Source: Mytilus californianus (taxonomy: Eukaryota). From it: 64,000 nt of DNA. Below are positions 9,394 to 60,399 of the stretch, piece by piece (positions within the stretch are counted from its first letter, which is position 1; every line of letters begins with the position of its first letter). The notes beneath the pieces are model-generated. The model saw only the letters and a list, made by a program, of their open reading frames with translations. It was not told where the DNA came from and did not search any database. Location of the stretch: positions 14,012,001 through 14,076,000 of the forward strand of contig NW_026262723.1 of NCBI RefSeq assembly GCF_021869535.1, given 5' to 3'. The translations under genes and the position numbers were made by a program.

Positions 9394-9522
9394 AATATAG
9401 AAGGTCAACTGATAATATGGTTAGAAACTCTGGTTATAGGTAGTGCAATTGTTCAGCACACTAGCAGGATGGTAATAGATATTTACGCTCTTAGTCGGAG
9501 GCCCTATCAAGAGAATTGTTCT
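9394..9522 (+). pseudogene. pol: Decayed pol remnant (end of RNase H domain)
   Basis: In-frame NIEGQLIIWLETL...YALSRRPYQENC matches the Gypsy RNase H end (N-x-EGQLARWLE-x-L...ADALSRRP). Flanked by stops; no RT or integrase core detectable. Confidence 0.7.
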
Positions 9523-33012: not shown

Positions 33013-33320
33013 AAGATACCCTTATTTTGCAGTTATCTAAGATAACCTCAGGTTGCAGTTATCTAAGATACCCTCAGGTTGCAGTTATCTAAGACACCCT
33101 CATTTTGCAGTTATCTAAGATACCCTCAGTTTGCAGTTATCTTAGATACTCTCATTTTGCAGTTATCTAAGATACCCTCATTTTGCAGTTATCTAAGATA
33201 CCCTCATTTTGCAGTTATCTAAGATACCCTCATTTTGCAGTTATCTAAGATACTCTTATTTTGCAGTTATCTAAAATACCCTCATTTTGCAGTTATCTAA
33301 GATACCATCATTTTTGCAGT
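33013..33320. repeat. 26-bp minisatellite (TTGCAGTTATCTAAGATACCCTCATT), ~12 copies
   Basis: GCAG at 33185, 33211 and 33237; each unit contains the palindrome TATCT-A-AGATA. Confidence 0.95.
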
Positions 33321-34789
33321 AGTAGTCCACATTTCCCCGACCTACACCCCAGACGGCCTATTACATTACCTGTCCATTGTATTTGTTGTAAATTTTCTGT
33401 CGGCCTAAAGATGTGCGAAGCTAAGCAAACATCAATCAATATAAATCCAACTAACATTTATGTACCCAATTCATTTGATAAGCATTAAAATATATTACTA
33501 CAAGTTAACCGACATTGTAAAAATTTAAAAGATAAGCTTATTCTTATTTTTGTCGTTTTAGAATGCGAATTGTCCGAGTGTTTAGACAAACATACATGTT
33601 TTGCATTTTGACCCTTCCCCCAAAAAAACAAAATTATTGTAAATTGGATAATGCCTATCATTAATGTTTCCTACGTAAGGAAAACATTTTAAATATGTTA
33701 GTGGAACAATCGACAAAAAATAAGTTGTATATTTAAATTATAGACAGACACATAAATAATAATTTTTATAGATCGGTTGAAATCCCAAAACTAATTTGCA
33801 TAATGGGAATTTAGGCGATAGCAATACATCGGAATGACCTGAAGGTCATCCTCTGTAAAAATAGGGAGATGGGTATGATAGACAATAAGACAACACCAGA
33901 GTGTAATGTGATGCTAAACTTAAGAAATGTTCTTTTCCACAATTTTATTTGTTCATAAGTTGTTGTTCTCCTCAAGTCCAGTTGCAAATATTTCATGCAC
34001 ATGCATTGTCAGTTTGTTTTCGACTTTGAATATCCCTTAAATATATTTTGCCTCTCTTCAGGACAAGATAAATATTAATAATAAATCCATCATGTAAATT
34101 CTGAGAAAAAAAAATGCTCGACCGGGATGAAAGGCGGGAAATTAAGAATGCAACTTGGAAATTATGACATGTTCGATAAGGATGAAAATTATTCCATTGC
34201 TGACATTTATTTTAGACTTAACTGAAGTCATGTGAAAAGAGTGAAATCCAATAAAAAAAAAAAAAATAATAGACGTTTCCTAATTATTATATGTAACATA
34301 TTGTTATAATATTACGCTATTTACATATGGAATAACAGATATTTTTTTATTAATTATACAACAGTACGTTTACATAGATATGTTAGTGGTAGTTACGAAA
34401 TCAATACATGATGTAGAAATCATTTAACTTTTTGATACACGCGTTCTGAAGTCTTCACCATGGTTTTGAGATTGATTTTGTTTCCTTATAGTCCAGTGGC
34501 AAATGATATTTCATGATTCCATGCATATTCAGGTCAAGAAAAGATAAACAATAATTACAATAGATAGGTAATGCAAGGCGGGTCGACCGGGATTGTGTAC
34601 TTAACATAGGCTTACAATTACCAATACAAATGTTAGACAAAAACAAATATTGTTTGTTAATTCTCCTCCCTCTTGTAAGACAAAATTTAATTGATAAAGG
34701 AGACTGAAAAGAATATAAATACTTCTAAGGCAAACATAAATGGTCTTTTTAACCATATATTGAGGCTGCCCACATCGATAGAAAAAAAC

Positions 34790-40951: not shown

Positions 40952-41228
40952 GTATGTATGTTAGTATAAGATTTTAAAAAGGAGGCGGAAGATACCAATA
41001 CGGCAATAATTTTAGAGAAACCGATAAAACCGTGGCAAACAATGGAAACTGATGAAAAGACAAACTATTATCTACAAAACACTACGTCGAAAACTATAGA
41101 CAGAGCAACACGAATCCCTCCAAAATCAGGGATTTCATCTACGAAAAAGTGTGCAGACATTATATGATTGATATCAGTGTCACAACGACTCATCATTTGT
41201 AATAAGAATAATATAAAAACAAATGATT

Positions 41229-42101
41229 TTATTGAACATCCTTCTCTGTTCCTTTTCTTGTACATCCTTTTCTGTTCCTTTTATTATTGTACACCCTTCT
41301 CTGTTCCTTTTATTATTGTACATCCTTCTCTGTTCCTTTTATTGTACATCCTTCTCTGTTCCTTTAATTGTACATCCTTCTCTGTTCCTTTTATTATTGT
41401 AAATCCTTTTCTGTTCCTTTTATTATTGTACATCCTTCTCTGTTCCTTTAAATATTGGAAATCCTTCTCTGTTCCTTTTATTATTGCACATCCTTCTCTG
41501 TTCTTTTTATTGTACATCCTTCTCTGTTCCTTTTATTATTGTACATCCTTCTTTGTTCCTTTTATTGTACATCCTTCTCTGTTCCTTTTTATATTGGACA
41601 TCCTTCTCTGTTCCTTTTATTATTGAACATCCTTCTCTGTTCTTTTTATTGTACATCCTTCTCTGTTCCTTTTATTATTGTACATCCTTCTCTGTTCCTT
41701 TTATTGTACATCCTTCTCTGTTCCTTTTATTATTGTACATCAATTTCCTTTTTTTGTACATCCTTCTCTGTTCCTTTTATTAATGTACATCCTTTTAGGG
41801 GCCAGCTGAAGGACGCCTCCGGGTGCGGGAGTTTCTCGCTGCATTGAAGACCCATTGGTGGCCTTCGGCTGTTGTCTTCTCTATGGTCGGGTTGTTGTCT
41901 CTTTGACACATTCCCCATTTCCATTCTCATTTTTATCCTTCTCTGTTCCTGTTATTATTGTACATCTTTCTCTGTTCCTTTTATTATTGTACATCCTTCT
42001 CTTTTCCTTTTATTATTGTACATCCTTCTCTGTTCCTTTTATTATTGAACATCCTTCTCTGTTCCTTTTATCATTGTACATCCTTCTCTGTTCCTTTTAT
42101 T
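41229..42101. repeat. 26-29-bp minisatellite (GTACATCCTTCTCTGTTCCTTTTATT[ATT]) interrupted by an interspersed repeat at ~41795-41925
   Basis: Many tandem units; the track ORFs at 41168-42103 are translations of this repeat. Confidence 0.95.
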
Positions 42102-42354
42102 AGTATATTCAATTCATTGACAACTTGACTCGAAGCATAAAATTTATATACTGTTTTGTCATAAATATTATGGTTAAGAGCATGTCGTACCGGTATTGCA
42201 TTACCACTCTGGTCTATTTTAATTGTTAGATATCTGTCTCACTGAAGAATCACGCATATTTCTTTTTATTTATATGTAAGGGATTATGTTACCCGCCGAC
42301 TTGCAAATGTTTCAATTCACCATGACGTACAAAGCGTAATAAGTATGGAATAGA

Positions 42355-42525
42355 ATTGAAAATGGAAATGGGGAATGTGACAAAGAGACAACAACCCGAC
42401 CAAAGAGCAAAAAACAGCCTATACGTCGGTCTTCAGCACAGCACAGAAAATCCCGCACCCGCAGGTGGGCTTCAGCTGGCCCCTAAACAAAAATGTGGAC
42501 TAGTTCAGTGAAAATGGATGTCACA
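42355..42525 (+). repeat. Abundant interspersed repeat family B (GAGAATGGAAATGGGGAATGTGTCAAAGAGACAACAACCCGACC...)
   Basis: Further copies at ~30165-30225 (-), 35781-35850 (+), 41795-41925 (-), 44575-44730 (+) and 45255-45310 (-). Confidence 0.85.
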
Positions 42526-42760
42526 CTTCATGTAATTTGAGGTTTGACATAAGCTCACTACCGACATTACCCAGAAAGACATCCGTAGCCTTAACTCGAG
42601 ATGTTATATTGAAATATAACACGTCAAAGAACGATAATCTTTAGCAAAAAGATAAACACATGTGCACATTAAATTAAACAGAATTTTTATTTTAAGCCAT
42701 GTTGTTATGTGTTTTTATTTGACTTATGATTTCCTATTGCCCCTTGGTACCTTCTCTCTG

Positions 42761-44201
42761 CTTTTACACTCATCACTTACTGCCGTAACTTTTTAGTACC
42801 CTCTTTTACACTCTTTTACACTCATCACTTACTGTCGTAGCTTTTTAGTACCCTCTTTTACACTCATCACTTACTGCCGTAGCTTTTTAGTACCCTCTTT
42901 TACACTCATCACTTACTACCGTAGCTTTTTAGTACCCTCTTTTACTCTCATCACTTACTGCCGTAGCTTTTTAGTACCCTCTTTTACACTCATCACTTAC
43001 TGCCGTAGCTTTTAAATACCCTCTTTTACACTCATCACTTACTGTCGTAGCTTTTTAGTACCCTCTTTTACACTCATCACTAACTGTCGTAGCTTTTTAG
43101 TACCCTCTTTTACACTCATCACTTACTGTCGTAGCTTTTTAGTACCCTCTTTTACACTCATCACTTACTGTCGTAGCTTTTTAGTACCCTCTTTTACACT
43201 CATCACTTACTGCCGTAGCTTTGTAGTACCCTCTTTTACACTCATCACTTACTGCCGTAGCTTTTTAGTACCTCTTTTACACTCATCACTTACTGTCGTA
43301 GCTTTTTAGTACCCTCTCTTACACTCATCACTTACTGTCGTAGCTTTAAGTACCCTCTTTTACACTCATCACTTACTGCCGTAGCTTTTTAGTACCCTCT
43401 TTTACACTCATCACTTACTGCCGTAGCTTTTTAGTACCCTCTTTTACACTCATCACTTACTGCCGTAGCTTTTTAGTACCGTACCCTCTTTTACACTCAT
43501 CACTTACTGCCGTAGCTTTTTAGTACCCTCTTTTACACTCATCACTTACTGCCGTAGCTTTTTAGTACCCTCTTTTACACTCATCACTTACTGCCGTAGC
43601 TTTAAGTACCCTCTTTTACACTCATCACTTACTGCCGTAGCTTTTTAGTACCCTCTTTTACACTCATCACTTACTGCCATAGCTTTAAGTACCCTCTTTT
43701 ACACTCATCACTTACTGCCGTAGCTTTTTAGTACCCTCTTTTACACTCATCACTTACTGCCGTAGCTTTTTAGTACCCTCTTTTACACTCATCAATTACT
43801 GCCGTAGCTTTTTAGTACCCTCTTTTACACTCATCACTTACTGCCGTAGCTTTTTAGTACCATCTTTTACCCTCATCACTTACTGTCGTAGCTTTTTAGT
43901 ACCCTCTTTTACACTCATCACTTACTGCCGTAGCTTTTTAGTACCCTCTTTTACACTCATCACTTACTGTCGTAGCTTTTTAGTACCCTCTTTTACACTC
44001 ATCACTTACTGCCGTAGCTTTTTAGTACCCTCTCTTACACTCATCACTTACTGCCGTAGCTTTAAGTACCCTCTTTTACACTCATCACTTACTGCCGTAG
44101 CTTTTTAGTACCCTCTTTTACACTCATCACTTACTGCCGTAGCTTTAAGTACCCTCTTTTACACTCATCACTTACTGTCGTAGCTTTTTAGTACCCTCTT
44201 T
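42761..44201. repeat. 42-bp minisatellite (TTTACACTCATCACTTACTGCCGTAGCTTTTTAGTACCCTCT), ~34 copies
   Basis: CACTTACT at 43501 and 43543, etc.; highly homogeneous; no spacers. Confidence 0.97.
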
Positions 44202-47475: not shown

Positions 47476-48135
47476 AAGAACAATAAGAGTTTGATAATGT
47501 ATAGAAACTCGAACAATTCAAGTAAAAGTAGTTTCGTTTATTCAACTATCCAATCAAAGTGTGACATTTCTTAAAAAGACAGTTACTGTAATATTTATGT
47601 TTAATTTCACTTTCTTTTAATCGACAACATTTCTTTAAATTGAAAACGACAAATTTTCGGTTAATTCTACATAAGTTGGTACAAGTAAGAGAAACCCGCC
47701 AAGAGACAGATCATATAACATTATGAATCCCATATAAAGATATGATTTCCCTAGCTGTATGAAAAAACTAGAATTTCTTCTGTCTGGTTGTGATTTGTTG
47801 AGAAAAAGAAATCATCTAATGAAATTGAGTAAATAAAATCAGCATAGATACTATTATTAAAAGTTTGTACGTCACACGCTCGTTTCGTCTACAAAAGATT
47901 CATTAGTAACGATCGAATAAAAAAAGTTAAAAAGGCCAAATAAAGGACGAAGTTAAAAAGCATTGAGGACCAAAACTTCCAAAATATTTGCCAATTACAG
48001 CTAAGGTAATCTATTCCAGGGGTAGAAAATCCTTAGTATTTTGAAAAAATTAAAGTTTTATAAACAGTTAATTAAATTATTTATAGTTATGACCATATTA
48101 ATGATAATTCATGTCAACACAGAAGTGTTTTTTGT

Positions 48136-48213
48136 AGTCTAAGGGTAAAAACAAGAATGTCTTTCAGTTTAGCACAAAACCCAAACACCTTAGAAGGATG
48201 TAATCCTAGGGTA
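48136..48213. repeat. Left terminal inverted repeat (weaker similarity extends ~14 bp further)
   Basis: AGTCTAAGGGTAAAAACAAGAATGTCTTTCAGTTTAGCACAAAACCCAAACACCTTAGAAGGATGTAATCCTAGGGTA matches the reverse complement of 59162-59239 with one mismatch. Confidence 0.92.
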
Positions 48214-51200
48214 AATACAAATATGTCTTTTACACAAAACCCAAACACCTTAGAAGGATGTAATCCTAGGGTAAATACAAATATGTCTTTTACACAAAAT
48301 GTCAGAGATACCCCAGCCCCAAATACCTTAGAAGGAAGCATTCCCCAAATTGATATACATGAAGGGATGGCATCCAATAGTGTTGATATGAATATGGATC
48401 AGTTCAAAGAGAATGAAGAACTCAAAACTTGTGGTGCTCCACTAAAAAGAAAGAAGGGGCAGTTTTGTAAGAGTAAACCAGGGAAAGATGGGCTTTGCTG
48501 GAGACACAGTAAAGAACCACGCCAGCAGGAGGATACCCAAGTTGTAGGGAATATTGTGGTGAAACCCACCATGAAAGAACTTCGAAAAATCGCAAAGAAG
48601 GAGGGTCTTAAGGGATATAGTAGGAAACCCAAGGGGGAATTGGTTAAGTTAATTGAGACCAATACTGCCCACAAATTTACTCGCGAAGAGGTTTTTACCA
48701 AAAAGGAACTGAAGACCATTGCCAAAAGACGGGGAATTACCAACTATTCCCGACTAGGGAGAGCTGACCTGACCGAACTGGTGAAAAAGAACATTGAAAA
48801 TGCCCCCGTTGAAGAGGAAATCAAAATTGTTAACCGACGCGATGCATTGAAAGGTGTATTTGGCACAATCACCATTGAACCCTTGAAACAGCATGATATG
48901 CTAACGTTTTTTAATGTAAGTCAAAGCACTATCGCCAGCACAATTTCAGATGCACTCACCAAAAAGAAGGCCCTAAAAGTGCAATTAGTACTACAGGTGG
49001 AGATGATAAAAACAAACCCAGCGACCGGAGAAAATATCTACGTCATTCCCCACTTTAGATCAACCCTTACCACCATCACCGAATCCACAGACCTTGAGTT
49101 GGAAATAGCATTTATGGTCGAGAAGGTCAAAGAAAATATGGCTAAATACATGCGTGAAGGTAGTGGGTGGACATTTGGTCATATTGAAAAGCTAGAAATC
49201 CACTTAAACAAGTTTAAACCTCTCAAAGGCAGTTCCTACATAGCATTGCCAAAACCGCTCGCTCAAAAGAAAGCTATCATCAATGTGCAGAATACTGATC
49301 AGGAATGCTTACGCTGGGCCATTCTTTCAGCCCTACATCAAGTTGACAAAAACTGTACCAAACGGGTGGGTCAGTACAAAAAGTGGGCTGATGAGTTCAA
49401 TTTTGATGGCATCCAGTTTCCAGTCTCGCTAAAGGCCATTGACAAATTCGAGAGGCAGAACACCGACCTAAACATTAACGTCTTTGGCTTTGACGGTGTA
49501 AAGAAGGGTGAAGATGAAGAAGAGGACCTCCAAATATATCCCCTCAGAATATCTAAGAATACAGGTTCGAGACATGTAGATCTTCTGTTCCTGACCAATA
49601 AGAGCAAGCAGCACTATTGCTGGATTAAGAGCCTATCTCGACTTTTGAGCTGTCAAATCTCAGAGCATGGTCATGAACTGTTCTTTTGCCGCAGGTGTTT
49701 GTCTCACTTCTCAAGACAGGATATCCTAGATGAGCATATGGAGTATTGCAGTCAGAAGGATGCAGTAAAGATCGAGATGCCAGAGGAAGGAACCCACATA
49801 GCCTTCCATAACCATAAAAAGTTGATGAGGGTTCCATTCGTCATTTATGCGGATTTTGAGTGTTTTACGGAAAAGGTCGACACTTGCCAGCCAGATCCAT
49901 CTCAGGCCTACACAAAGGCATATCAACAACATCGACCATCAGGTTTTTGCTATAGGGTGAAATATGCTCACGGTGATTACAAAGACTCAGTCATCTACTG
50001 TGGAGAGGATGCAGCTAAAAAGTTTGTACAGTGCATGGAGCAGGAAGTTAGGGAGATTGCTAAGCTTTACAAGGAAAACAAACCTATAGAGATGACCGAC
50101 GCTGATAAGGAGATTTTTGAAGCAACCACAAACTGTCACATTTGCGGTGGTGAATTAGCTGGTGACAAGGTTCGCGACCACGATCACCTCACAGGTAAGT
50201 ATCGCGGCGCAGCACACAACCAGTGCAACTTGGACTTCCAACTTCCAAGACATGTACCCATTGTTTTCCACAACTTGAGTGGATACGACGCCCATCTTTT
50301 TGTGAGCGAATTAGGAGTTGGAGAAGGTAAGATAAACTGCATCCCTAACACCGATGAGAAATACATCAGCTTCTCGAAAGAAGTAGATGGAGCATTGGAG
50401 ATGAGATTCATAGATTCATACAGGTTTCTACCGAACTCCCTGGAAACCTTGGCAGGGAATCTTACAAAGGAACAATTCGGGGCAATAAAGAAGTGCTTTG
50501 GCGATCGATATGAACTGATGATCAGGAAGGGAGTATATCCCTATGATTACATGGATGGACCTGCCAAGCTAGAGGAAACACAACTACCACCCAAGGAGGA
50601 ATTCTTCAGCAAACTCTATGGCACACACATCAGCGACGAGGACTATGCACATGCTCAGCAGGTGTTTAAGGAATTTAGGTGTAAGACTTTGCGGGACTAC
50701 CACAATCTATACCTGGAAAGTGATGTAGCCATATTGGAGGATATTTTTGAGGACTTCAGGAATATATGTATGGCTAACTATAAACTCGACCCTGCACACT
50801 ATTTCACATCTCCAGGACTATCCTACGATGCAATGCTAAAATGTACAGGAGTGAGACTAGAACTCCTCTCGGACCCTGATATGCTGATGATGTTTGAGAA
50901 TGCAACCAGAGGAGGTGTCGCCACGATCTCTCATCGACATGGCAAGGCTAACAATCCCTACATGAAGAATTTTGATAGCTCCCAGCCAACTAAGTATTTG
51001 ACCTATCTTGACGCCAACAACCTCTACGGATGGGCGATGGTACAATCTCTGCCCACGGGAGACTTTGAGTGGGTAGAGCCAGAGGAGATTGAGGAGATCC
51101 TAGAGTACCCCGATGACCATGAATATGGTGCCATGGTAGAGTGTGATTTGGAGTACCCCGAAAAGCTTCATGATGCTCACAATGTCTATCCACTAGCTCC

Positions 51201-52221
51201 AGAGAATGTGGAGATAAATAAGGTGCGAAAGCTAGTGCCTCACCTAGGTAAGCGCGAAAAGTATACTCTCCACTACGGAAATCTCAAAATGTACCTGACG
51301 ATGGGCATGAAACTCACCAAAACACGTCGGATTATCAGGTTTAGACAATCCCCATGGCTCAAACACTACATCGATCTAAACACCACTCTCCGCACCAAAG
51401 CTAAGACCGATTCTGAGAAAGACTTTTTCAAACTTATGAATGTCTCAGTTTTCGGAAAGACCATGGAGAACATCCGCAAGAGGGTGGACGTCAAACTGGT
51501 CAATAGTGAAAAGCAGGCACTTAAGCTTGTGGCCAAACCCAACTTCGATCGTCGGGTCGTCTTTACCAACAACTTAGCAGCCGTCCACATGAAAAAGACC
51601 AAACTTAAGTTTGATAAGCCTGTGTATTTGGGAGCCTGCATTCTGGACATCTCAAAGACCCTGATGTATGACTTTCACTACGGTTTCATCAGGAAGATGT
51701 ACGGTGACAACGCCCAGCTGCTCTTTACCGACACTGACAGCTTGGCCTATGAGATTAAGACCGAGGACTTTTACAAGGACATTACACCACACGTCCAAGA
51801 AAAATTCGATACCTCCAGCTACCCTACCGAACATCCTTCAGGCATTCCCACCGGTGTAAACAAAAAGGTGGTTGGAATGTTTAAGGACGAGTGTGGTGGT
51901 AAAGTGATGACAGTGTTTGTAGGTCTCCGGGCAAAGTTATACTCCTACAAGATGAACGACCACACTACCACCAAGAGAGCAAAAGGAGTAACAAAGTCTG
52001 TCATCAAACAAAACATCACCTTTGATGAGTACAAACAATGCCTAGACACTCAGCTGGAAATATGTAAGCCGATGAACATCATCCGCAGCCGCCTTCACCA
52101 GATCTACACCGAGGAAATCAACAAAATAGCACTCTCGGCCAAGGATGACAAGCGACATATTCTGGAGGATGGAATCAGTACTCTTGCCCATGGACATTAC
52201 AAAATCGAAAAGGATATCTAA
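48157..52221 (+). CDS. polB: Protein-primed family B DNA polymerase (1354 aa from the first ATG; true start may be downstream)
   Basis: Exonuclease motifs FHNLSGYDAH, FIDSYRFL and KGVYPYDY; polymerase motifs YLDANNLYGWAM, KLMNVSVFGKT and FTDTDS. Endonuclease-VII-like CHIC...RDHDHLTGKYRGAAHNQCN, a C2H2 finger, and GSSYIALP..INVQNTDQECLRWAILSALH are typical of animal Polintons. Confidence 0.96.
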   Translation: MSFSLAQNPNTLEGCNPRVNTNMSFTQNPNTLEGCNPRVNTNMSFTQNVRDTPAPNTLEGSIPQIDIHEGMASNSVDMNMDQFKENEELKTCGAPLKRKKGQFCKSKPGKDGLCWRHSKEPRQQEDTQVVGNIVVKPTMKELRKIAKKEGLKGYSRKPKGELVKLIETNTAHKFTREEVFTKKELKTIAKRRGITNYSRLGRADLTELVKKNIENAPVEEEIKIVNRRDALKGVFGTITIEPLKQHDMLTFFNVSQSTIASTISDALTKKKALKVQLVLQVEMIKTNPATGENIYVIPHFRSTLTTITESTDLELEIAFMVEKVKENMAKYMREGSGWTFGHIEKLEIHLNKFKPLKGSSYIALPKPLAQKKAIINVQNTDQECLRWAILSALHQVDKNCTKRVGQYKKWADEFNFDGIQFPVSLKAIDKFERQNTDLNINVFGFDGVKKGEDEEEDLQIYPLRISKNTGSRHVDLLFLTNKSKQHYCWIKSLSRLLSCQISEHGHELFFCRRCLSHFSRQDILDEHMEYCSQKDAVKIEMPEEGTHIAFHNHKKLMRVPFVIYADFECFTEKVDTCQPDPSQAYTKAYQQHRPSGFCYRVKYAHGDYKDSVIYCGEDAAKKFVQCMEQEVREIAKLYKENKPIEMTDADKEIFEATTNCHICGGELAGDKVRDHDHLTGKYRGAAHNQCNLDFQLPRHVPIVFHNLSGYDAHLFVSELGVGEGKINCIPNTDEKYISFSKEVDGALEMRFIDSYRFLPNSLETLAGNLTKEQFGAIKKCFGDRYELMIRKGVYPYDYMDGPAKLEETQLPPKEEFFSKLYGTHISDEDYAHAQQVFKEFRCKTLRDYHNLYLESDVAILEDIFEDFRNICMANYKLDPAHYFTSPGLSYDAMLKCTGVRLELLSDPDMLMMFENATRGGVATISHRHGKANNPYMKNFDSSQPTKYLTYLDANNLYGWAMVQSLPTGDFEWVEPEEIEEILEYPDDHEYGAMVECDLEYPEKLHDAHNVYPLAPENVEINKVRKLVPHLGKREKYTLHYGNLKMYLTMGMKLTKTRRIIRFRQSPWLKHYIDLNTTLRTKAKTDSEKDFFKLMNVSVFGKTMENIRKRVDVKLVNSEKQALKLVAKPNFDRRVVFTNNLAAVHMKKTKLKFDKPVYLGACILDISKTLMYDFHYGFIRKMYGDNAQLLFTDTDSLAYEIKTEDFYKDITPHVQEKFDTSSYPTEHPSGIPTGVNKKVVGMFKDECGGKVMTVFVGLRAKLYSYKMNDHTTTKRAKGVTKSVIKQNITFDEYKQCLDTQLEICKPMNIIRSRLHQIYTEEINKIALSAKDDKRHILEDGISTLAHGHYKIEKDI

Positions 52222-52251
52222 AGGCCACTTTTGATTCATATAAATAAAGTA

Positions 52252-52503
52252 ATGGGTAAAAGTAAACGCAACAATTATACAAAATTCACCAGGTATGCTG
52301 GTTCGGGTCAAGAATGAATTAATGAATATCGTCAGAAGATGGAACTCTATGAAAAACAAGATAAACTCAGAGACCGTTTGGAGAAGAGAAAGGCTGAAGA
52401 GATTAAAGAACAAGAAGCTGAAAAGATCTTAGCGATGATGGAATTCACCAAAAATTATTACAGGATTTTACAACACCTCAGCAAGCTAGGATTAAATAAA
52501 TGA
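52252..52503 (+). pseudogene. Small basic/coiled-coil ORF with one premature TGA (52315-52317)
   Basis: MGKSKRNNYTKFTRYAGSGQE*INEYRQKMELYEKQDKLRDRLEKRKAEEIKEQEAEKILAMMEFTKNYYRILQHLSKLGLNK*; fills the gap between polB and the protease and is preceded by TATAAATAAAGTAATG. Confidence 0.6.
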
Positions 52504-52919
52504 GCAGCATACGTGTGCACAACATAACCCTTCCCAATAAACCTCTTTCGAATGTAGACCTTGTGAAAGCCACCAAGGACCTAGGAATCCCATGTTTCAG
52601 AGGGGTGTTCATGCGAGATACCCTACCACCCAGCCCGCGCCGCATCGAATGTGGAATCTTGAATCACGATAGCTGGGAAGGTCCTGGAACGCATTGGACC
52701 TGCTGGTATAAACGTGGGCCGGTAAAGTATTACTTTGACTCCTATGGATTGCCACCGCCTGACGAGATGGTGAACTACTTACAGCCTGAAATTCGATATA
52801 GCACGGATGAATTACAGCAGCGAGGCTCGGTGATGTGTGGTCACTTTTGTCTGTACGTGTTGAATATGCTGTCGGCGGGGAAGTCGCTAGAGGACGCGGT
52901 CTTCTCACTCTATAAATAA
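52500..52919 (+). CDS. Adenain-like cysteine protease (139 aa)
   Basis: Catalytic pattern GTHW...YFDSYG...QQRGSVMCGHFC (H/D/Q/C) as in adenoviral and Polinton maturation proteases. Confidence 0.92.
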   Translation: MSSIRVHNITLPNKPLSNVDLVKATKDLGIPCFRGVFMRDTLPPSPRRIECGILNHDSWEGPGTHWTCWYKRGPVKYYFDSYGLPPPDEMVNYLQPEIRYSTDELQQRGSVMCGHFCLYVLNMLSAGKSLEDAVFSLYK

Positions 52920-53396
52920 ATGGATAAGTTTGGATCTCATGCAAGAAAGCGCGCATCCCTTTGGCGAATGCTGCAGGATTTGGATATGAACGACAATCGC
53001 ATTACTAGCCTAGGACAACCCAAGGACAGCTCGGATGCTGTGACAAAACGGTGGGTGACCCAACAGTTAAAAGATGGTATGAAAGATCTTGACGAGCTAG
53101 AATCGGTGTGCAAACAGATTCAGATGACCATCAAGCGACTGGAAAGGGACTTTGAATCATCGAGCAAAGAACTCACCAAAAAGCTTATGGCCGTAGAAAA
53201 TGGTAAAGTCGACAAGTCAGAATGCGTCTCAACCAACGGTGGTAAGATGAAAATAGACTTGGACATGCAAAAGTTTCACGTGCTGAATCTCCCACTCCCA
53301 CGAACTGACAACGAACCCATCACCAAAGCCCTTTACGATCGTCTACAGTCGGATTTGGATGCATTGAGGGTTTTTGTCGAATTGAAGCATGCTTAG
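52920..53396 (+). CDS. Hypothetical protein with two fibre-like repeats (158 aa)
   Basis: LDMNDNRITSLGQPKDSSDAVTKRWV and LDMQKFHVLNLPLPRTDNEPITKALYD separated by a coiled-coil; resembles phage tail-fibre-type DM-x4-I-x-NL-x2-P-x4-DA-x-TK-x-YV repeats. Confidence 0.6.
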   Translation: MDKFGSHARKRASLWRMLQDLDMNDNRITSLGQPKDSSDAVTKRWVTQQLKDGMKDLDELESVCKQIQMTIKRLERDFESSSKELTKKLMAVENGKVDKSECVSTNGGKMKIDLDMQKFHVLNLPLPRTDNEPITKALYDRLQSDLDALRVFVELKHA

Positions 53397-53406
53397 TTTT
53401 CCAAAT

Positions 53407-53436
53407 CTTTCCAGTCTCAAGGTTGAGACCGGAAAG
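53407..53436. terminator. Hairpin between convergent genes (candidate 3'-end signal)
   Basis: CTTTCCAGTCTCAA-GG-TTGAGACCGGAAAG: 14-bp arms with one mismatch, between the stops at 53396 and 53448. Confidence 0.6.
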
Positions 53437-53447
53437 GTTGTTGAGGA

Positions 53448-54863
53448 TTATTGTAGATCTGATTGTGGGACCCACGAGTTAAAATTCTTAGGATAACCCT
53501 TCCACTTTACAAACACCTCATTAATCCCGTTCTTGGTTCGCCTGCGGAGGATCTTCTCTATGCGGTAGACGTCCTGATCAGTCTTTTGAAGTTCGGGCTC
53601 ATAGAAGGATCCCTGAATTTCCTCGCCACTAAAATCCTTGAGGCGATAGGTGGGCGGCTGAGTGTTCAACACTAGGGAAATGGTAAATACTTCCTCGGTC
53701 CATCGGGGTGTGTATCCCTTCTCGAATGTACCTTTCTTCTTGGTGATTCGGACTTTGTCGCCAGCATGAAATCGCGGTGGTTTTATGGGAGGTATGCTGC
53801 CGTAAAGGTTCCAATACACCTTGTTTTCATGCTCCTTATGACTTGCGGCGACAGGGGTCATTTTGATGGATCGGTGCTTGGTGGTATTGTACTGGCGAAC
53901 AAGATTATCCAAAACATTGATGTAGGTGCGTGTAGAGTTGGCCGAGAAATATTTGAACATTTTCTCTTTCATGGTGCGATTCCAGCGCTCAACCACACTC
54001 GACTTCTCCTCATTTTCGGTGGAGTAGAGCTCAATATCATGCTTTTGAAGCAGCTGATTTACATCCTTGTTGTAAAACTCAGTGCCTTTGTCTGTCCAAA
54101 GCTTCTTGGGCATACGCTCCTTGAACACCGCTTGAAAGGCATCCCGCACCGTCACCCCCTTCTTGTTTTTGAGTGGTATCAACCAGCCATATTTGGAGAA
54201 GACATCGATGATGCTCAGGATGAACTTATTTCCCTTGTTGTCCCTAGAAAAGGCACTCATATCAACAAGGTCGGCCGCCCAGGTCTCATCCACACCACCC
54301 ACTACCACACGGCGTTTCTGAAACTTACGTCGAACTGGTTTGTGCAACTCCTCAGCTAAATCATCGGTCCAGCGAACTTTTTTTTTAATACCCAGACCGA
54401 ATCGAGCTTTGGTACCGATGATGGGTCCGACGATGCTGCGGTCCATGCGTTCGCAAGTAGTAGGGTTGGGAATGGTGTTAAGCGAGGCTAGCATAGCTTT
54501 GTCACAGATGGAGTTGCGTGAAGCGGTATCCTTATGCTGGGCATAACAGAGATCGTGGTGATAGGCAGCCTGGTCCACTCGATTAATGGGTTTTGACCAA
54601 GCCTTCGGGGTGCCATCGGGGAGTAGTCGCTTGCTAAGTTTAGTCCCTGGCCCGGTGAAGTTGTGTCCGGGGAGATGCATTTCCATGGGTAATCGGTTGA
54701 TTAGTTTTTTCATAAACCCTGCACCGGTTGTAGCAACAAACTGAGACTTATTGGCACCGCACACCTTGCAGTTGCCAACCTTCCTCCGTCGCCCGTTGAT
54801 GGTATTTGTTTCACCAGGGTTAACTGTGTCCGTCTTCCTACGACATTTCACGCAGAAGATCAT
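53448..54863 (-). CDS. int: Zn-ribbon / parvovirus-type phospholipase A2 / retroviral-type DDE integrase / chromodomain fusion protein (~471 aa)
   Basis: N-terminal CVKC...CKVC; HNFTGPG and AAYHHDLCY (PLA2 Ca-loop and HD dyad); ADLVDM, WTDKGTEF and VERWNRTMK (D,D,E); C-terminal IEKILRRR...VFVKWKGY...NSWVP chromodomain. ATG at 54863 follows a minus-strand TAAATAAA. Confidence 0.92.
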   Translation of the reverse strand: MIFCVKCRRKTDTVNPGETNTINGRRRKVGNCKVCGANKSQFVATTGAGFMKKLINRLPMEMHLPGHNFTGPGTKLSKRLLPDGTPKAWSKPINRVDQAAYHHDLCYAQHKDTASRNSICDKAMLASLNTIPNPTTCERMDRSIVGPIIGTKARFGLGIKKKVRWTDDLAEELHKPVRRKFQKRRVVVGGVDETWAADLVDMSAFSRDNKGNKFILSIIDVFSKYGWLIPLKNKKGVTVRDAFQAVFKERMPKKLWTDKGTEFYNKDVNQLLQKHDIELYSTENEEKSSVVERWNRTMKEKMFKYFSANSTRTYINVLDNLVRQYNTTKHRSIKMTPVAASHKEHENKVYWNLYGSIPPIKPPRFHAGDKVRITKKKGTFEKGYTPRWTEEVFTISLVLNTQPPTYRLKDFSGEEIQGSFYEPELQKTDQDVYRIEKILRRRTKNGINEVFVKWKGYPKNFNSWVPQSDLQ

Positions 54864-54869
54864 CGTTAT

Positions 54870-54885
54870 TTTATTTAAATAAATG
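54870..54885. promoter_or_regulatory. Bidirectional TAAATAAA palindrome at the divergent integrase/ATPase junction; representative of the recurrent TAAATAAATG motif
   Basis: TTTATTTAAATAAA (54870-54883) is a perfect palindrome. Exact TAAATAAATG occurs at 52493, 52913, 54876, 56731, 57506 and 58089. Confidence 0.65.
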
Positions 54886-55431
54886 AACGTCGAAGACATT
54901 TCCTACAGTGTCAACGCTCCCAAGAGGAGCAATCACTACCTCCTACCGCAGCGGTCGATCAGAGGGTTGATCATTGGGAAGTCGGACTGTGGTAAAACAA
55001 CGCTGTTGAACAACCTACTCCTGCGCGATGGATGGCTCGACTACGATCGATTGTACGTCTTCGGAAAATCGCTTCACCAGCCCATCTACCAGCTGTTGCA
55101 GCAAGCGCTGGGAAAAGGCTTCCCTAAGGAAGATATCCGAGACCTCCTACAGTGTAAGAGCAATTCACCCTACTCGTTGATCGATGTGGTCGACGCCTTA
55201 CCACCACCACGACACCCGAGTGGTATCAACACTTATTTCTTCGAGCAAGGGAGCGATGTACCAGACCCCCAGGAACTTGATCCCAGCCGAAACAACCTCA
55301 TGGTGTTCGACGACTTGATGCTGAGCAAACAGAACACGTGTTCAACGCAAAAAGCCAGAGCAAGTTTGGTTAAACAATCTAATCTCCGGCTCTGGTATCA
55401 AAACCATCCACGACTTCGTCCAACGCTATAA
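54883..55431 (+). pseudogene. FtsK/A32-like packaging ATPase, C-terminally truncated
   Basis: Walker A GKSDCGKT and Walker B LMVFDD. Similarity stops after KQNTC (~55341); the expected RGRH motif and C-terminal half are missing. Confidence 0.85.
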
Positions 55432-55442
55432 ATAAATACATT

Positions 55443-56581
55443 ATGTCTAACATTCCGAAAGTTATCTCGTGGTAGAAGGTCGACTTCTCAAGAATGATGA
55501 CACAGCATATGCCGATGGCGATCTTGTGTCGCTCACCCATAATGGTATCATGTATCTCTTCAAGAGCATCAGTTACAGGCTTTCCGGTCAGCAGATCGAA
55601 CATATTAACGACCCCGGCATTGCCACCACTATGCTGGGAATGTTAACCTACCCCGACGACTTCTCCAAATCGCAGGGTCTCAACCAACTGTGGTATAAGG
55701 ATTCTTCCATCGATGCTGAGGCTGAGAACACTGGATTTGCAGCCCGCCATGGATACATTATCACCAAGCCCACCAACAAAGGATCGTTTTCGTTTGCCAT
55801 CCCCCTAAAACATATTTTTGGATTCGCAGATGATTACAACAAAATAGTGTACGGGTTCAGACACAAACTCTCACTCGTTCGCGATTCAAATGCTAATGCC
55901 ATTTTGAGAGCAGCTGCCGTCAACGATCCGGCAAAGATCGTCCTGAATAAACTATCGTGGTTCGTCCCTCACATCACCCCCTCAGACGAAAATAAGATGC
56001 AACTGTACAAAACCATCCAAAGTAAATCCAAGATCCACTGTGGATTTCGCATGAGACAGTGTGATTCCATAGCCGTTCCCCAAGCCTCACAGTTTAACTG
56101 GCGCCTAGCTGCCAAGAGTGGTCGCGAAAAGCCTAGATATATCATTGTTGCCTTCCAAACCGACAAAAGTGGTGACCAAACCCATAATGCTGCCGTGTTC
56201 GATCACTGTCGATTGCGAAATATCCATGTCACCCTCAACGCTGAACGTTATCCAGCAGTCGACTATAATGCAGCTTTCAACGAAAATAGGATCGCCAGAG
56301 TGTTCAAAGAGGCCTCCGACTTCAGAAAGAAATTCCATAACATGGACAGTCTCCTCAGTAATGGTGGGATTAATCCCTCTGATTTCATCGACTTGTACCC
56401 CTTGTTTGTGATTGATGTGAGTCATCAGTCTGAGCGTCTCAAAGAATCCACGGTGGATATTCAGATCAGAGCCGAATTCGCCCGTAATGTTCCAGCCAAC
56501 ACCGAGGCGTATGCACTTGTCATTTCCGACAGAATCCTACAGTTTGAATCCGATGGTCAAAAGATGAACGTTGTGTACTAA
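55443..56581 (+). pseudogene. Double jelly-roll major capsid protein with N-terminal deletion and frameshift
   Basis: ATG at 55443 (MSNI) is out of frame with SESYLVVEGRL...PGIATTMLG...IPLKHIFGFADDYNK...KPRYIIVAFQT...YPLFVIDVS (open frame 55469-56581), motifs typical of Polinton MCP. Confidence 0.88.
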
Positions 56582-56587
56582 AAGTAA

Positions 56588-56737
56588 ATGGATAAAATTC
56601 ACCTACAACTCCTCTTTGCCAGTCACCCCGCCGAAGTCTATGCGATCGTAGTGAAGGCTAGTAAACAACTCAAGGAGCAGTATGACGGTATCGAAGAGTG
56701 GAAGCAAAAATATGTGACAATGGTCTACCATAAATAA
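56588..56737 (+). CDS. Small hypothetical protein (49 aa)
   Basis: MDKIHLQLLFASHPAEVYAIVVKASKQLKEQYDGIEEWKQKYVTMVYHK*; starts in TAAATG and its stop abuts the penton ATG, exactly filling the gap. Confidence 0.6.
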   Translation: MDKIHLQLLFASHPAEVYAIVVKASKQLKEQYDGIEEWKQKYVTMVYHK

Positions 56738-57508
56738 ATGGATAACACATTGTTGCAGCAAATTGCTAATAACACCGACCCAAAGCATGGGTTTTCCTTC
56801 ATCGTCTCTGGAAACGATAACCAAATCCTTACCCGGTTCAACCCCCCACTACAACTCAAGGAATCTAAGACCTACGAAATGGCATTAGTAAACCTGGAAA
56901 CCTATAACTCCATCCCCAACATTCATACAGGTAACAATTCCTTCCGCTACTCCCCCGACGATGGTGCCAACTGGTTTCCCATCGCACTAAGCACAGGTTC
57001 CTATGACATCGAAGACATCAACAATGAGATCCAGCGGCGGCTGCGGCTCAACAAACACAAAACGAAGATCATCATCGATGCCAACCGGGCAACCCTAAGA
57101 GCAACGCTGACCCTCGCCAGACACTATCAAGTAGACTTCAACGTTGTCAATAGCATCAACACCGTCTTGGGATTCGAGCGGCAGATTTACACGTTCGATA
57201 TGATCACAAACGGCTATACGGAAGGGGAACACATTGTAAATATCATCAGCATCAACAGCATTCTGGTGAATAGTGATATCATCCATGGAAGTTATGTAAA
57301 TGGTACACAGCAGTCTACCATCTACAGCTTTTTTCCCGCAGACGGTCCTGGTATGAAGATCATTCAAACCCCAAAGAATCTAGTATACTTGCCGGTGACC
57401 TTGCGAACCATCAATCGCATGCAAACGTATCTCACCGATCAAGATGGTAGGCCCATCGATTTCAGGGGTGAACATCTCACCATCCGCTTTCATCTTCGTG
57501 AGGTATAA
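56738..57508 (+). CDS. Minor capsid protein (penton, single jelly-roll; 256 aa)
   Basis: FNPPLQL...YEMALVNLETYNSIPNI...GSYDIEDIN...LGF...INSILVNSDII..SYVNG...IYSFFP...YLPV...LTDQDGRPIDFRGE..TIRFHLR is typical of the Polinton minor capsid. Confidence 0.88.
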   Translation: MDNTLLQQIANNTDPKHGFSFIVSGNDNQILTRFNPPLQLKESKTYEMALVNLETYNSIPNIHTGNNSFRYSPDDGANWFPIALSTGSYDIEDINNEIQRRLRLNKHKTKIIIDANRATLRATLTLARHYQVDFNVVNSINTVLGFERQIYTFDMITNGYTEGEHIVNIISINSILVNSDIIHGSYVNGTQQSTIYSFFPADGPGMKIIQTPKNLVYLPVTLRTINRMQTYLTDQDGRPIDFRGEHLTIRFHLREV

Positions 57509-57512
57509 ATAA

Positions 57513-58091
57513 ATGACTTATCACGAACATGGTTTGAGTTTGACAAAAGGTCAAGCTGATAAACTACAACGGGCTGCCAAAAAAGGTTGTCCGGTCTCCA
57601 TTCGTTTGTCCCACGCAAACCTGCAAGGTGAACACAAGATGTTGCTCACCACCCGCCAGGTTCAAAAGATCGCCAAGCTCCTACAAAAGGGTACTGGTGG
57701 TATGGTCCTAGAGTTGAGTGCGACCTAATTGAAGGAAAACATGCAGAAGGTGGGTGGCTTCCTACCCATGTTGTCGGGGCTGGCAATGAGGGCACTCCCC
57801 ATGTTAGCAAAAACCATTCTACCCGCCTTGGGTGTTGGAGCCTTGAGTGGTCTTGGTGGTGTAGCCGTCAACAAGGCCTTAGGGTCTGGATTGTACCTGA
57901 AACGTGGTGGATGCGTTTGCACCGTGAAACCTAGTGGCAACGGTCTCTACCTCAAACCTTCAAACGCCCAGATCACCTATGGTGATGGACTCTACTTGAA
58001 GCGTGGTCAGCAATTCCACGACGGAGCTGGTCTAATCTTAGGTGCTAACAGCCCCTTCAAAAATATTCCCCTCCTCGGTATGCTCCTATAA
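57513..58091 (+). pseudogene. Putative protease-processed core/membrane-lytic protein with one premature TAA (57726-57728)
   Basis: Track ORFs 57513-57728 and 57729-58091 are in the same frame. Amphipathic segment GGFLPMLSGLAMRALPMLAKTILPALGVGALSGLGG and repeated G-x-G-L-Y-L-K motifs. Confidence 0.7.
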
Positions 58092-58095
58092 ATAA

Positions 58096-58605
58096 ATGGA
58101 TGATTTAGATTCTGGATACCGACAGACCAGAGTCGAATGTATGGAAGATCAACTCAACGCGGATATACATAAGTATCAACATACCTTGAAGATCTACAAA
58201 CGTCTGGACAAAGTTGCATCTGTAGCACTGGGTGCTTGTTCTGTGGGCAGTTTGGTGTTAACCAGCTGCACCATGGGTTCAGCTTTGACCGGTATAGGTA
58301 TTATAGCCTCCCTTCCCCTAGGATCCCTTGCGTGCTTGAGTGCCACTGGCGTGATGGTACTCACACTAATCTCAAGGCGTATCATGAAAAAGAAGAAAAA
58401 ACACCGCGACACCTTGCAATTGGCACAGTCCACAAAATTTTTGGTTGAACAATGTATTAGTACTGCTTTGGCTGATGATGAACAAATTGATGATGCTGAG
58501 TTTGGGAAAATCACCACCTGCCTCAAAAACTACTACGATGAAAAAGATAAGCTCCGACAACCTTCCACCACTTTTAGTGAGGACCTTAATGCGCATGCGC
58601 CGTAA
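58096..58605 (+). CDS. Putative membrane protein (169 aa)
   Basis: Long Gly/Ala/Ser-rich hydrophobic stretch (VASVALG...VMVLTLI), followed by KKKKKH..TLQLAQS and ISTALADDEQIDDAEF, similar to small membrane ORFs of animal Polintons. Confidence 0.7.
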   Translation: MDDLDSGYRQTRVECMEDQLNADIHKYQHTLKIYKRLDKVASVALGACSVGSLVLTSCTMGSALTGIGIIASLPLGSLACLSATGVMVLTLISRRIMKKKKKHRDTLQLAQSTKFLVEQCISTALADDEQIDDAEFGKITTCLKNYYDEKDKLRQPSTTFSEDLNAHAP

Positions 58606-58705
58606 AAAACGTCACACATCATTCCGTTACACTTCACTCCACACATCGTTTCACGATGTGCTCCATTCCGCTTCACTTCATGATGTGCGACGTTTCAAGC
58701 ATAAA

Positions 58706-58753
58706 AAAAAACTTTTCCAATCCGGCAGAAATGTCGGATCGGAAAAATTTTTT
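58706..58753. terminator. 22-bp-stem hairpin with GAAA loop between convergent genes
   Basis: AAAAAACTTTTCCAATCCGGCA-GAAA-TGTCGGATCGGAAAAATTTTTT; three non-Watson-Crick positions, each G.U-compatible on one strand or the other. Confidence 0.6.
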
Positions 58754-58788
58754 GTACCCCACCCGGCCCATTATTTTTTTTTTTGGAC

Positions 58789-59151
58789 TTAATTTCTCAC
58801 AAGGTCGTAAGAGAAGTACTCCTGCTTGGTCTTTTTGCTGACTTTAAAGCCTGTACTTCTCACGAAGGCTCCTACCATGGGTCCTGTCTCTCTGTTCAGT
58901 CCACTGCAGGCCCACACCCTATTCGTTTCTCCTTCTCTGTTTTTCAAGGTGAGGATCTTACTCTTTCCAAACTTACCATCTACTTCCACCACTTCCAGGA
59001 TTTTATAGATCACACCGGTTGAGAGTTCCTTCCATTTCAGGGTTTCCAGGCTCTGATCCTTTGCCTTTTCCTCGAAAACATTATCGTTCATAAAATCGTT
59101 GTCTACGATTTGTGGACTTCTGAGTTCCTCCATCTTTTGTACGAAAGCCAT
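58789..59151 (-). CDS. Hypothetical protein (120 aa), possible OB-fold ssDNA-binding protein
   Basis: Intact ORF starting at the inner edge of the right TIR; beta-rich pattern IYKILEVVEVDGKFGKSKILTL...VWA. Fold call is inference only. Confidence 0.6.
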   Translation of the reverse strand: MAFVQKMEELRSPQIVDNDFMNDNVFEEKAKDQSLETLKWKELSTGVIYKILEVVEVDGKFGKSKILTLKNREGETNRVWACSGLNRETGPMVGAFVRSTGFKVSKKTKQEYFSYDLVRN

Positions 59152-59161
59152 ATTTTGTTTC

Positions 59162-59239
59162 TACCCTAGGATTACATCCTTCTAAGGTGTTTGGGTTTTG
59201 TGCTAAACTGAAAGACATTCTTGTTTTTACCCTTAGGCT
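59162..59239. repeat. Right terminal inverted repeat
   Basis: Reverse complement of 48136-48213. Confidence 0.92.
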
Positions 59240-59369
59240 AATTGAAACGTATTGCGTTTGCATTTTATGTTTGGGGTTGGGGTTCCTATGCTGAATCTGT
59301 GCTTAAAATGGCAAGTGCCGCAGAATCGGCCTATTGACACTACTTGGATATAAGCAATTATACCCATTC

Positions 59370-59640
59370 TTCATTCACGTAAGAGGAGATTTTAGAGAAT
59401 CACAAATCCGTTCCTCACTTCTTTGGTATAAACAATTAAAAGAACGCCTTTAGTATGAGCATAAAAAGGGACGATGGAAATCTCTCATCTTATTTATACG
59501 GGATAACTAAACTTCACAAAAATCTTTATAAAGAACTATATATATATAGCCGGGTCGTTAATATATATATTCGACTAAACATCTCTCTTAAGTTATTACA
59601 TCCTGTCTACAGTAAAAGATGACTGTGGTGCGGTATATTC
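59370..59640 (+). pseudogene. Decayed Penelope-like retroelement fragment
   Basis: Broken frames give EEILENHKSV..FGI and a TKLHKN..K...IAGS...STK-like segment typical of the pre-RT region. Confidence 0.5.
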
Positions 59641-60399
59641 AACCAGTGGTCTCGATCAGATGTGTAATATCAGACTATCTGGTAAGATAAACTATATTAA
59701 GCTTCGCATGCGATAACCGTCATAAGCAGTGGAAGAAGTATATTAACAAACTCCTTTTTAAAATATGTTCGCGCTATATGGAAGAGGTTGAACTAACATG
59801 TCCATAACAATTAATCAGAGGATTTTTGCTTATTTCCATGTAACTGCCTCTGCTTCTTCAAAAACGAACCCGTAATTTCAAAATATAATGCATTCTGGGT
59901 AATATCTTCAAAAACTTACGCCAAAACGGTAGGATAGGGCATGTACTATATAAACAATTATTACCAACAAGTCTAAATTTAAAACAACGTTCAAACCTAC
60001 GATTGCGTTGGATAAAAACCGCAATTTTTATACGTGTGCATGCAAAACAAATTTCTTGGTAGAGGGGTCTAAATACAGCACAAACAACATTTTCCAAAAG
60101 ACCAAAAAAAGTGAAAAAGTATATTTTAACAAAACGCATTTAACTAGCAGGTCGAACAACGGATGTTCTTAAACCCTGCTGACTGCCATTGGCGATTGCC
60201 AAATAAACGGATCACCAGATGTAACAAAATGGATCTTAACCATTAATTTAATACCAAACAGAAAAAAATAAACTTGCGGAACAATTATTACTATATTATA
60301 ACCATTTTATTTGCAAATAACACCCATATGGTCTAACTAACAAAAAAACACAAAATATAACACAATATTAACACAGCAGTCAAACATTTAAACGTAAAA

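Follow-up and report, generated by a model that had tools for sequence, protein, structure and literature searches.

Animal Mavericks (Polintons) are usually treated as transcribed by their host, and chloroviruses lack a full transcription set of their own. In the available text of PMC11980589 and PMC5294985, vaccinia intermediate and late promoters carry TAAA(T)G across the start codon. Most transcription genes are missing from Medusavirus, whose starts are directly preceded by AATAAA-like and poly-A motifs (PMC8557863, in extract); signals of this kind may therefore be readable by a host polymerase. Transcription of a Beta adintovirus in fish tissues is described in the accessible part of PMC8502044. 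Entomopoxvirus-associated PLVs are an earlier case in which a poxvirus of an animal has a polinton-like hyperparasite; a term search of the text and supplement of PMC11296320, in the portions available, returned no promoter analysis. Regarding promoter or 3′-end signals of Mavericks and adintoviruses, the word "promoter" is absent from PMC8502044 and bioRxiv 10.64898/2026.06.19.733378. Here we describe a mussel Maverick whose signals resemble those of large cytoplasmic DNA viruses, not those of host genes.

An internally deleted Maverick copy and its genes

The window, i.e. the whole 64,000-nucleotide stretch of Mytilus californianus DNA that was analysed, contains at 48135-59344 a Maverick/Polinton that belongs to a multi-copy family and has undergone internal deletion, as comparison with its siblings shows. 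The siblings have AGTAGT ends, TIRs of 128-210 nt and 6-bp target duplications; the outer left end is missing from the window copy, which keeps an inner remnant of the left TIR containing the polB start (48135-48221, plus strand) and a right TIR ending in ACTACT (59135-59344). Compared to 10 of 10 siblings, about 2 kb are missing at 55341 and about 150 nt at 55455, and as a result the ATPase is shortened and the 5′ part of the capsid gene is broken. Membership in the Mavericks/Polintons is indicated by polB, an rve integrase, a double jelly-roll (DJR) capsid, an A32-like ATPase and an adenain protease, all of which are present. The nearest named capsid to that of the element is from Mytilus.

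The plus-strand polB ORF (48157-52221, 1354 aa) was labelled from recognised motifs and from its 45-59% identity to polymerases of relatives; Pfam matched only Rho_N and Endonuclease_7 in this ORF, with no PF03175 match. It is followed on the same strand by the adenain-like protease (52500-52919; 1avp, E 6.5e-05) and a 158-aa ORF from the ORF list (52920-53396). The minus strand at 53448-54863 encodes a PLA2-like domain, the rve integrase (Pfam, E 4.1e-09) and a chromodomain. Next on the plus strand come the truncated packaging ATPase (54883-55341; Pox_A32, E 3.3e-06 for a sibling's copy), the DJR major capsid gene (55443-56581; PF21738, E 1.9e-62), a 256-aa ORF (56738-57508) with no Pfam match, which we take to be the minor capsid protein, and a 169-aa ORF from the ORF list (58096-58605). 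A minus-strand ORF of 120 aa whose start lies at the right TIR (58789-59151) was assigned to a phi29 SSB cluster (0.86), which is a lead only towards a ssDNA-binding protein; its predicted fold had a pLDDT of 48 and no significant structural match. An atlas search gave no usable match for a 279-aa gene family. Pfam detected no RNA polymerase among the element ORFs scanned (the 279-aa gene being represented by a relative's homologue), one deleted ORF had a weak zinc-finger match (E 0.001), and Rfam found no match in 47500-60000.

A motif linked to gene starts

The preliminary description of this DNA reported an exact motif ahead of six genes. All six copies of this 10-mer, TAAATAAATG, were indeed found, all on the plus strand (52493, 52913, 54876, 56731, 57506 and 58089) and each with its last three letters forming the ATG of an ORF, compared to a mean of 0.90 (maximum 4) in whole-window shuffles and of 0.05 (maximum 2, n=500) in element-only dinucleotide shuffles. 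Five of them stand at the starts of the protease (52493-52502), the 158-aa ORF (52913-52922, overlapping the protease stop), the 256-aa ORF (56731-56740), a conserved ORF of 192 aa in siblings that is stopped early here (57506-57515) and the 169-aa ORF (58089-58098). The sixth lies in the divergent gap (54864-54885), where a plus-strand motif at 54876-54885 stands back to back with the minus-strand TAAATAAA at 54870-54877, which had correctly been placed ahead of the integrase. The integrase-side ATG is corrected to 54863, giving a gap of 19 nt; the gap measures 13-19 nt in mussel copies. Variants had also been claimed ahead of other genes. This held for TATAAATAAA before a small ORF (site 52241, 52239-52254, plus strand; 83-85 aa in siblings, cut short here by an early stop) and before the major capsid ATG at 55443 (site 55429, 55427-55445, plus strand). 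At 56585 the variant is weak and differs between siblings. Among the siblings, eight exact motifs were present in 9 of 10 and six in the other one, and in two full copies all 10 occurrences of TA[AG]ATAAA in each were 0-7 nt ahead of an ATG.

Conservation of the motif in homologous elements, which had been proposed as a check, was observed across five divergent subfamilies: motif positions differed at 7 of 242 compared to 1370 of 3374 four-fold sites, a contrast inflated by the overlap of several motif positions with upstream codons or stops and by local alignment, which favours matches. This sequence comparison supports a role for the motif as a start-linked signal under selection. The start directly after the motif is the true capsid start, since residues 4-85 show conservation and no further Met occurs before residue 86. 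An ordinary TATA box with a start 25-30 nt downstream would lose 85 conserved capsid residues and is ruled out. Adenovirus-like spliced leaders were also rejected, with no excess of the splice acceptor YAG in relatives (19/104 vs. 22.9).

Seven upstream ORFs stop inside or across the motif, as might be expected if it acted at the RNA level, marking a leader or a site of ribosome re-initiation within long polycistronic transcripts made by a host polymerase. Such read-through RNA would also suit element-sense reads free of antisense. However, the motif also occurs at the divergent junction, where no gene ends, its spacing to the ATG varies from 0 to 7 nt, and the intergenic A/T gaps of relatives are 20-40 nt long; we consider this reading improbable.

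The motif had been described as absent before polB, giving a clean early/late-like split. Its absence holds for the window copy, but copies C1 and C88_83, which have a common polB 5′ end and TIR different from those of the window copy, carry TAAATAAA 4 nt ahead of an in-frame polB ATG. The split is thus broken in one subfamily.

In distant relatives, the exact 10-mer is absent at 104 of 104 starts and the layout is an A/T block followed by TAAA-ATG. TAAA occurs within the last 10 nt before the start in 88/104 cases (vs. 42 shuffled) and an AAAAAT[AT] block in 40/104 (vs. 20). These relatives show the layout of a bipartite post-replicative nucleocytovirus promoter, in which a TAAA/TATA initiator is preceded by an A/T core some 15-25 nt upstream; the mussel family has the initiator-like half only. 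Of seven divergent junctions in relatives, the five with a positive gap measure 22-41 nt. AAA[AT]TGA was seen at 7/25 replication-side genes vs. 1/131 other genes, the pattern being chosen post hoc, with small n and one match inside an upstream coding end. The baculovirus late word TAAG is under-represented upstream of starts (10/104 vs. 18). This argues against a reading in which the motif is used by a baculo/nudi-like or mirusvirus-like polymerase, from a large DNA virus that is nuclear and falls outside Nucleocytoviricota; the element would still be helper-dependent under that reading. In its favour, adintovirus virions have been co-purified from insect cells infected with baculovirus (PMC8502044, in part); we assign it a low probability.

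Gene ends, expression and helper searches

Stem-loops are found at both convergent junctions of the mussel copies, without a poly(A) hexamer, and are putative 3′ ends. A 16-bp hairpin (53404-53439; z -4.2 and -3.6) separates the converging 158-aa ORF and integrase, and the integrase-end hairpin is kept in four different sequences. At the second junction, a 15-bp hairpin has an A-run ahead and a T-run behind (58713-58746), close to a folded region 3′ of the 169-aa ORF (58607-58695, plus strand, z -5.8). The two convergent junctions account for the sole two long plus-strand hairpins of copy C154. In relatives, convergent-end hairpins were seen in 2/5 (p=0.22) and are not general.

AATAAA or ATTAAA was found within 300 nt of 0 of 4 terminal genes. 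The motif itself contains an AATAAA that overlaps upstream stops, and one occurrence lies about 20 nt past the polB stop, as if stop codon, poly(A) signal and start codon had come to overlap through genome compaction. The lack of the hexamer at all four terminal genes, the presence of the motif where no gene ends and TAGATAAATG variants that disrupt the hexamer led us to reject this very improbable reading, in agreement with the earlier view that the motif is not merely a stop codon or poly(A) signal.

One raw RNA run contained 36 element reads in 1,554 Mb, too few for start mapping and with no start piles; they were element-sense, with none antisense. This near-silence fits host silencing equally well. 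Contig runs X1, X3 and X5 showed fairly even coverage of the element; these may be DNA and carry no information on starts.

Profiles for VLTF3 and NCLDV capsids (PF04947, PF04451) gave a blank against the genome, with no positive-control match either, and viral contigs scanned with a single capsid sequence yielded no match. When viral contigs were searched with a 14-mer, at least 80 loci matched, and among the 80 listed, 20 matches stand ahead of an ORF of at least 60 aa; no helper was singled out because the matches listed span mixed phage-like and giant-virus-like contigs. In contig L207, entomopoxvirus-like by reading of its ORFs only, the match is inside a coding region, and 2 of 6 starts end in TAAATG or TAAAATG. 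Nucleocytovirus-like reads in mussel haemolymph (PMC9723566, in the available part) are based on read classification and were not counted as support.

The mussel TIRs lack AAAATTGA. They hold words that we take to be octamer-like and C-box-like, host-type in look. These words would suit host RNA polymerase II in the nucleus recognising the motif as a compact initiator, possibly aided by a factor that the element itself encodes; the weak zinc-finger match fits here too. The virus-like look would then be inherited and the element autonomous. Medusavirus and chloroviruses, with their A-rich start-proximal motifs (PMC8557863 and PMC5294985, both in extract), point in the same direction, as do the fish transcripts of an adintovirus and the adintovirus virions found in cultured insect cells. 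However, these virions derive from baculovirus-infected cultures (PMC8502044, in part), and the missing hexamers at terminal genes, a divergent gap of just 13-19 nt and the near-silent run do not fit easily. We regard host transcription as rather unlikely.

Our preferred explanation is that the element depends on a helper and is transcribed by the nucleocytovirus-type machinery of a large DNA virus, to which we give an even chance. Every gene would have a separate, very short 5′ leader, and transcripts would read through tandem genes and terminate at the hairpins between opposing genes. Since it encodes no recognisable RNA polymerase, the element would be mostly silent in the host genome, with the capsid module expressed upon co-infection, as in virophages. 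The analysis shows where the motif sits, that it is under selection, that terminal genes lack poly(A) hexamers and that hairpins are present; initiator function, polymerase and helper are inferred. The start-linked motifs, their conservation, the tight divergent gap, the hexamer-free ends, the hairpins, the layout in relatives and the near-silent run all favour this evenly weighted explanation, whereas the blank helper searches, the missing vaccinia late core, the host-type TIR words and the hairpins not being general in relatives count against it.

More tentatively, and with somewhat less than even confidence, a whole lineage of canonical animal Mavericks may be endogenous virophages with a complete nucleocytovirus-type signal set (an early AAA[AT]TGA core, a post-replicative TAAA initiator and hairpin ends). 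Lineage-specific motifs would then be signatures of large DNA viruses of invertebrates still to be discovered, and the dozens of near-intact mussel copies could be an inducible antiviral reserve. The motif provides a sequence handle for tracing a putative large virus in a group of bivalves that is farmed.

Comparison with known systems

The element is like Mavericks/Polintons (Polintoviricetes) in its polB, rve integrase, DJR capsid, ATPase, adenain protease, TIRs and 6-bp duplication, and its PLA2-like domain recalls the adintovirus with a PLA2-type virion module in the available text of PMC8502044. Entomopoxvirus-associated PLVs differ in their divergent capsids and lack of an rve integrase (PMC11296320, in part). 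With Sputnik and the mavirus/EMALE type 4 virophages, as portrayed in extracts of PMC6723459 and PMC8547959, it has in common a start-proximal motif ahead of most genes, gene-end hairpins, the lack of its own RNA polymerase and integrated copies; unlike them, it has an animal host, a Polintoviricetes-type capsid and a motif that is not TCTA. A virophage in the functional sense shares its promoter with a known helper and is expressed and replicated only in its company; the mussel element is a candidate for this. The yeast linear virus-like elements pGKL1/2 (accessible text of PMC6211774) resemble it in their TAAAN initiator, in having hardly any intergenic DNA and a protein-primed-type polymerase, and in stem-loops at 3′ ends, which are putative in the mussel element; however, pGKL2 has its own RNA polymerase and capping enzyme, and there is no capsid.

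As in vaccinia late promoters, TAAAT(G) lies across the start codon at 8 of 10 sites of copy C154. Unlike in these promoters, T at -13 (the 10th base upstream) occurs at only 2 of 8 mussel sites, the upstream AT fraction is 0.40-0.70 vs. 0.54 for the element, with no T/AT-rich core, and a motif-ATG spacer of 0-7 nt and TAGATAAA are tolerated. The A-rich block, then T, then TAAA of the relatives resembles the vaccinia intermediate class, as far as its published description was available. The poxvirus label of the preliminary description is therefore not supported: the T-rich late core is missing, the 10-mer is absent from all 104 starts in relatives and the early/late split is unclean. Read from the DNA, the signals would fit nucleocytovirus-type transcription in general, not poxviruses specifically: start motifs, hairpin ends and bipartite layout all match nucleocytovirus features in the available text of PMC11980589, PMC5294985, PMC6723459 and PMC6211774.

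Copies, deletions and gene arrangement

The element at 48135-59344 is a Maverick/Polinton. Its genes include a polymerase ORF, an adenain-like protease, a PLA2-integrase-chromo ORF and a DJR capsid; an A32-like ATPase was found in a sibling copy. A 1-kb probe gave 40 scored matches (187 candidates) in the 1.65 Gb genome, and the capsid gave 99 from 98 scored of 604 candidates, many of them stop-free. The closest named capsid (97% identity) is labelled Mytilus trossulus. In full siblings the ends are AGTAGT, with TIRs of 128-210 nt and 6-bp duplications. The window copy is defective: its left TIR lacks the outer part, two deletions relative to 10/10 siblings remove about 2 kb (55341) and about 150 nt (55455), and two small ORFs carry early stops. 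In sibling C1, the 5′ half of polB and the TIR resemble those of sibling C88_83, while the capsid module is 97-99% like the window family; C1 is likely a product of recombination between subfamilies.

Several siblings hold about 1.1-1.3 kb of additional DNA near the right end (C110, at L112:8850-10000 and L114; C165; C1; C143), which in C110 comprises a ~36-nt tandem repeat and more coding-looking DNA. Short tandem repeats and hairpins lie just 5′ of the 279-aa gene (9360-9610 in sibling C154, 8249-8355 in sibling C68_76, and in relatives too). The host DNA of the window has tandem arrays of its own (110-973, 22221-23364, 32956-33366 and 41145-44193; units of 47, 35, 26, 29/26 and 42 nt) and dispersed SINE-like repeats.

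The PLA2-like and integrase parts share one frame in the window copy (around 54360-54400), show a mixed arrangement among mussel copies, and are separate ORFs in all eight relatives holding both (loci L032, L040, L041, L045, L060, L081, L255 and L031). The frame changes close to an A-rich run, where programmed frameshifting or slippage of the polymerase is likely.

A conserved signal at start codons

The preliminary description placed exact TAAATAAATG before six genes. All six are present and every one heads an ORF, where 0.05 would be expected by chance in the element; nine of ten siblings have eight and the tenth has six. The form TA[AG]ATAAA, counted on either strand, lies 0-7 nt 5′ of an ATG in 10/10 cases in each of two full copies from different subfamilies. 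Between C154 and five divergent copies (capsid identity 73-83%), 1370 of 3374 four-fold sites have changed vs. 7 of 242 aligned motif positions, a contrast that is an upper bound, since only aligned sites count, some positions fall within codons and the copies are related. In each of eight close copies, 0/70 motif positions differ from C154. The signal is real and selected, and is probably an initiator. Because the motif overprints their final codons, the last two residues of four unrelated ORFs are YK, HK or NK (52910-52919, 55422-55431 and 56728-56737 in the window).

The motif is not a poly(A) signal, in line with the earlier argument that at the divergent junction it cannot be only that or a stop codon: AATAAA/ATTAAA occurs within 300 nt of none of the four terminal genes, the divergent gap, 13-19 nt long and without any gene end, holds two motifs facing away from each other, and TAGATAAATG variants exist. 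Transcripts from an ordinary TATA box would start 25-30 nt downstream and miss the ATG; this reading is rejected because capsid residues 4-85 are conserved across 37 aligned proteins and the following Met is residue 86. A splice acceptor fares no better, with YAG at 19 of 104 starts in relatives vs. 22.9 in shuffled sequence.

These starts, homology-anchored and one per gene per cluster, come from 81 loci with capsid identity of 52-60% (best 80 of 512; 33 clusters). The exact 10-mer precedes 0/104, and TAAA falls within the last 10 nt of 88 (shuffle 42, max 56). Further 5′ come T-rich DNA (-19 to -13) and, before it, a block of A (about -26 to -20), and AAAAAT[AT] is present at 40/104 starts vs. 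20 shuffled. AAA[AT]TGA at -60 to -21 is found before 7/25 genes on the polB side and before 1/131 of the rest (p = 9e-6, for a pattern chosen after inspection). More distant elements (capsid 38-40%) have a similar start layout as judged by eye. Against this shared layout, the mussel 10-mer is thus a compact, lineage-specific version of one common to the whole lineage. A similar A-block with TATATA-ATG was seen by eye in three very AT-rich contigs, L260, L262 and L264, which are polinton-like/virophage-like and more distant.

The clean early/late split proposed from the window copy holds there, where polB and the 120-aa ORF start at a TIR edge without the motif, but not in C1 and C88_83, which have it before an in-frame polB ATG; the split is partial. 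The polB starts of relatives likewise end in TAAAA-type words. TIRs of two types (window 59135-59344 and sibling TIRs) carry ATGCAAA near position 82 and a CCCC-n-CCCC box near 62. Three of four TIRs looked at contain GGGGAAAT, which we take to be kB-like. Such words hint that the terminal genes could be under host or immune control.

Gene ends and transcripts

At both convergent junctions folding is stronger than in shuffled sequence (z -4.2/-3.6; -5.8; -1.9/-3.6). The integrase-end hairpin reaches -23 to -27 kcal/mol in six copies with four distinct sequences, and the right-end hairpin is flanked by an A run and a T run. On the + strand of C154 these two are the only long stems, in a scan whose thresholds let some hairpins of other copies slip through. 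Among 16 loci of relatives (at least 5 kb long, outside the large decayed cluster), z < -2 was found in 2/5 convergent vs. 13/120 tandem junctions (p = 0.22), and the hairpin rule is therefore established for mussel families only. In these the motif goes together with hairpin ends and without host poly(A) signals.

Four of 24 runs were mapped on a 9,951-nt stretch of C154. The single raw RNA run among them yielded 36 reads from 1,554 Mb (~6% of its data), of which 20 overlap the stretch only in part. Most follow the main direction of the element, provided the library keeps the usual strand rule, and they form no start or end piles. The other three, contig runs, also match and may be DNA. A genome search for VLTF3 and NCLDV capsid found neither, and no positive control gave a match.

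Comparison with known promoter systems

Judging by titles and abstract openings, none of the papers found deals with how promoters look in animal Mavericks; an earlier mention is possible, as subscription literature lay mostly outside this survey. The word 'promoter' has no occurrence in the searched text of PMC11296320 (including supplement), PMC8502044 and bioRxiv 10.64898/2026.06.19.733378; parts of PMC13359090 and PMC11788076 were also consulted.

According to PMC11980589, vaccinia late promoters combine TAAAT(G) at the start codon with an upstream T core; in the intermediate class an AT-rich block lies 15-19 nt 5′ of TAAA; early promoters are A-rich and broken by TG. The poxvirus-late-like label stands for the initiator half, but T at -13 is found in just 2/8, and because only that half matches we do not class the motif as a poxvirus late promoter. 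It would seem to work like a nucleocytovirus initiator nonetheless. Signals summarised in PMC5294985 are TATATA (ASFV, late), AAAAATANTT (chlorovirus) and AAAATTGA (mimivirus, early).

Reading by the host polymerase is unlikely, yet stays alive as a rival through Medusavirus, which, according to PMC8557863, has AATAAA-like and poly-A motifs before starts without most transcription genes. Adintoviruses cut both ways: they are transcribed in fish, and their virions came from insect cells infected with baculovirus (PMC8502044). Our best reading, with about an even chance of being right, is that a nucleocytovirus-type polymerase of a putative helper reads the motif; widened to a helper of that type or another large virus, the proposal becomes somewhat probable. 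Three sources describe comparable systems: promoter and hairpin signals common to Sputnik and mimivirus (PMC6723459), EMALE motifs interpreted as helper fingerprints (PMC8547959), and yeast pGKL elements with TAAAN and stem-loop ends (PMC6211774).
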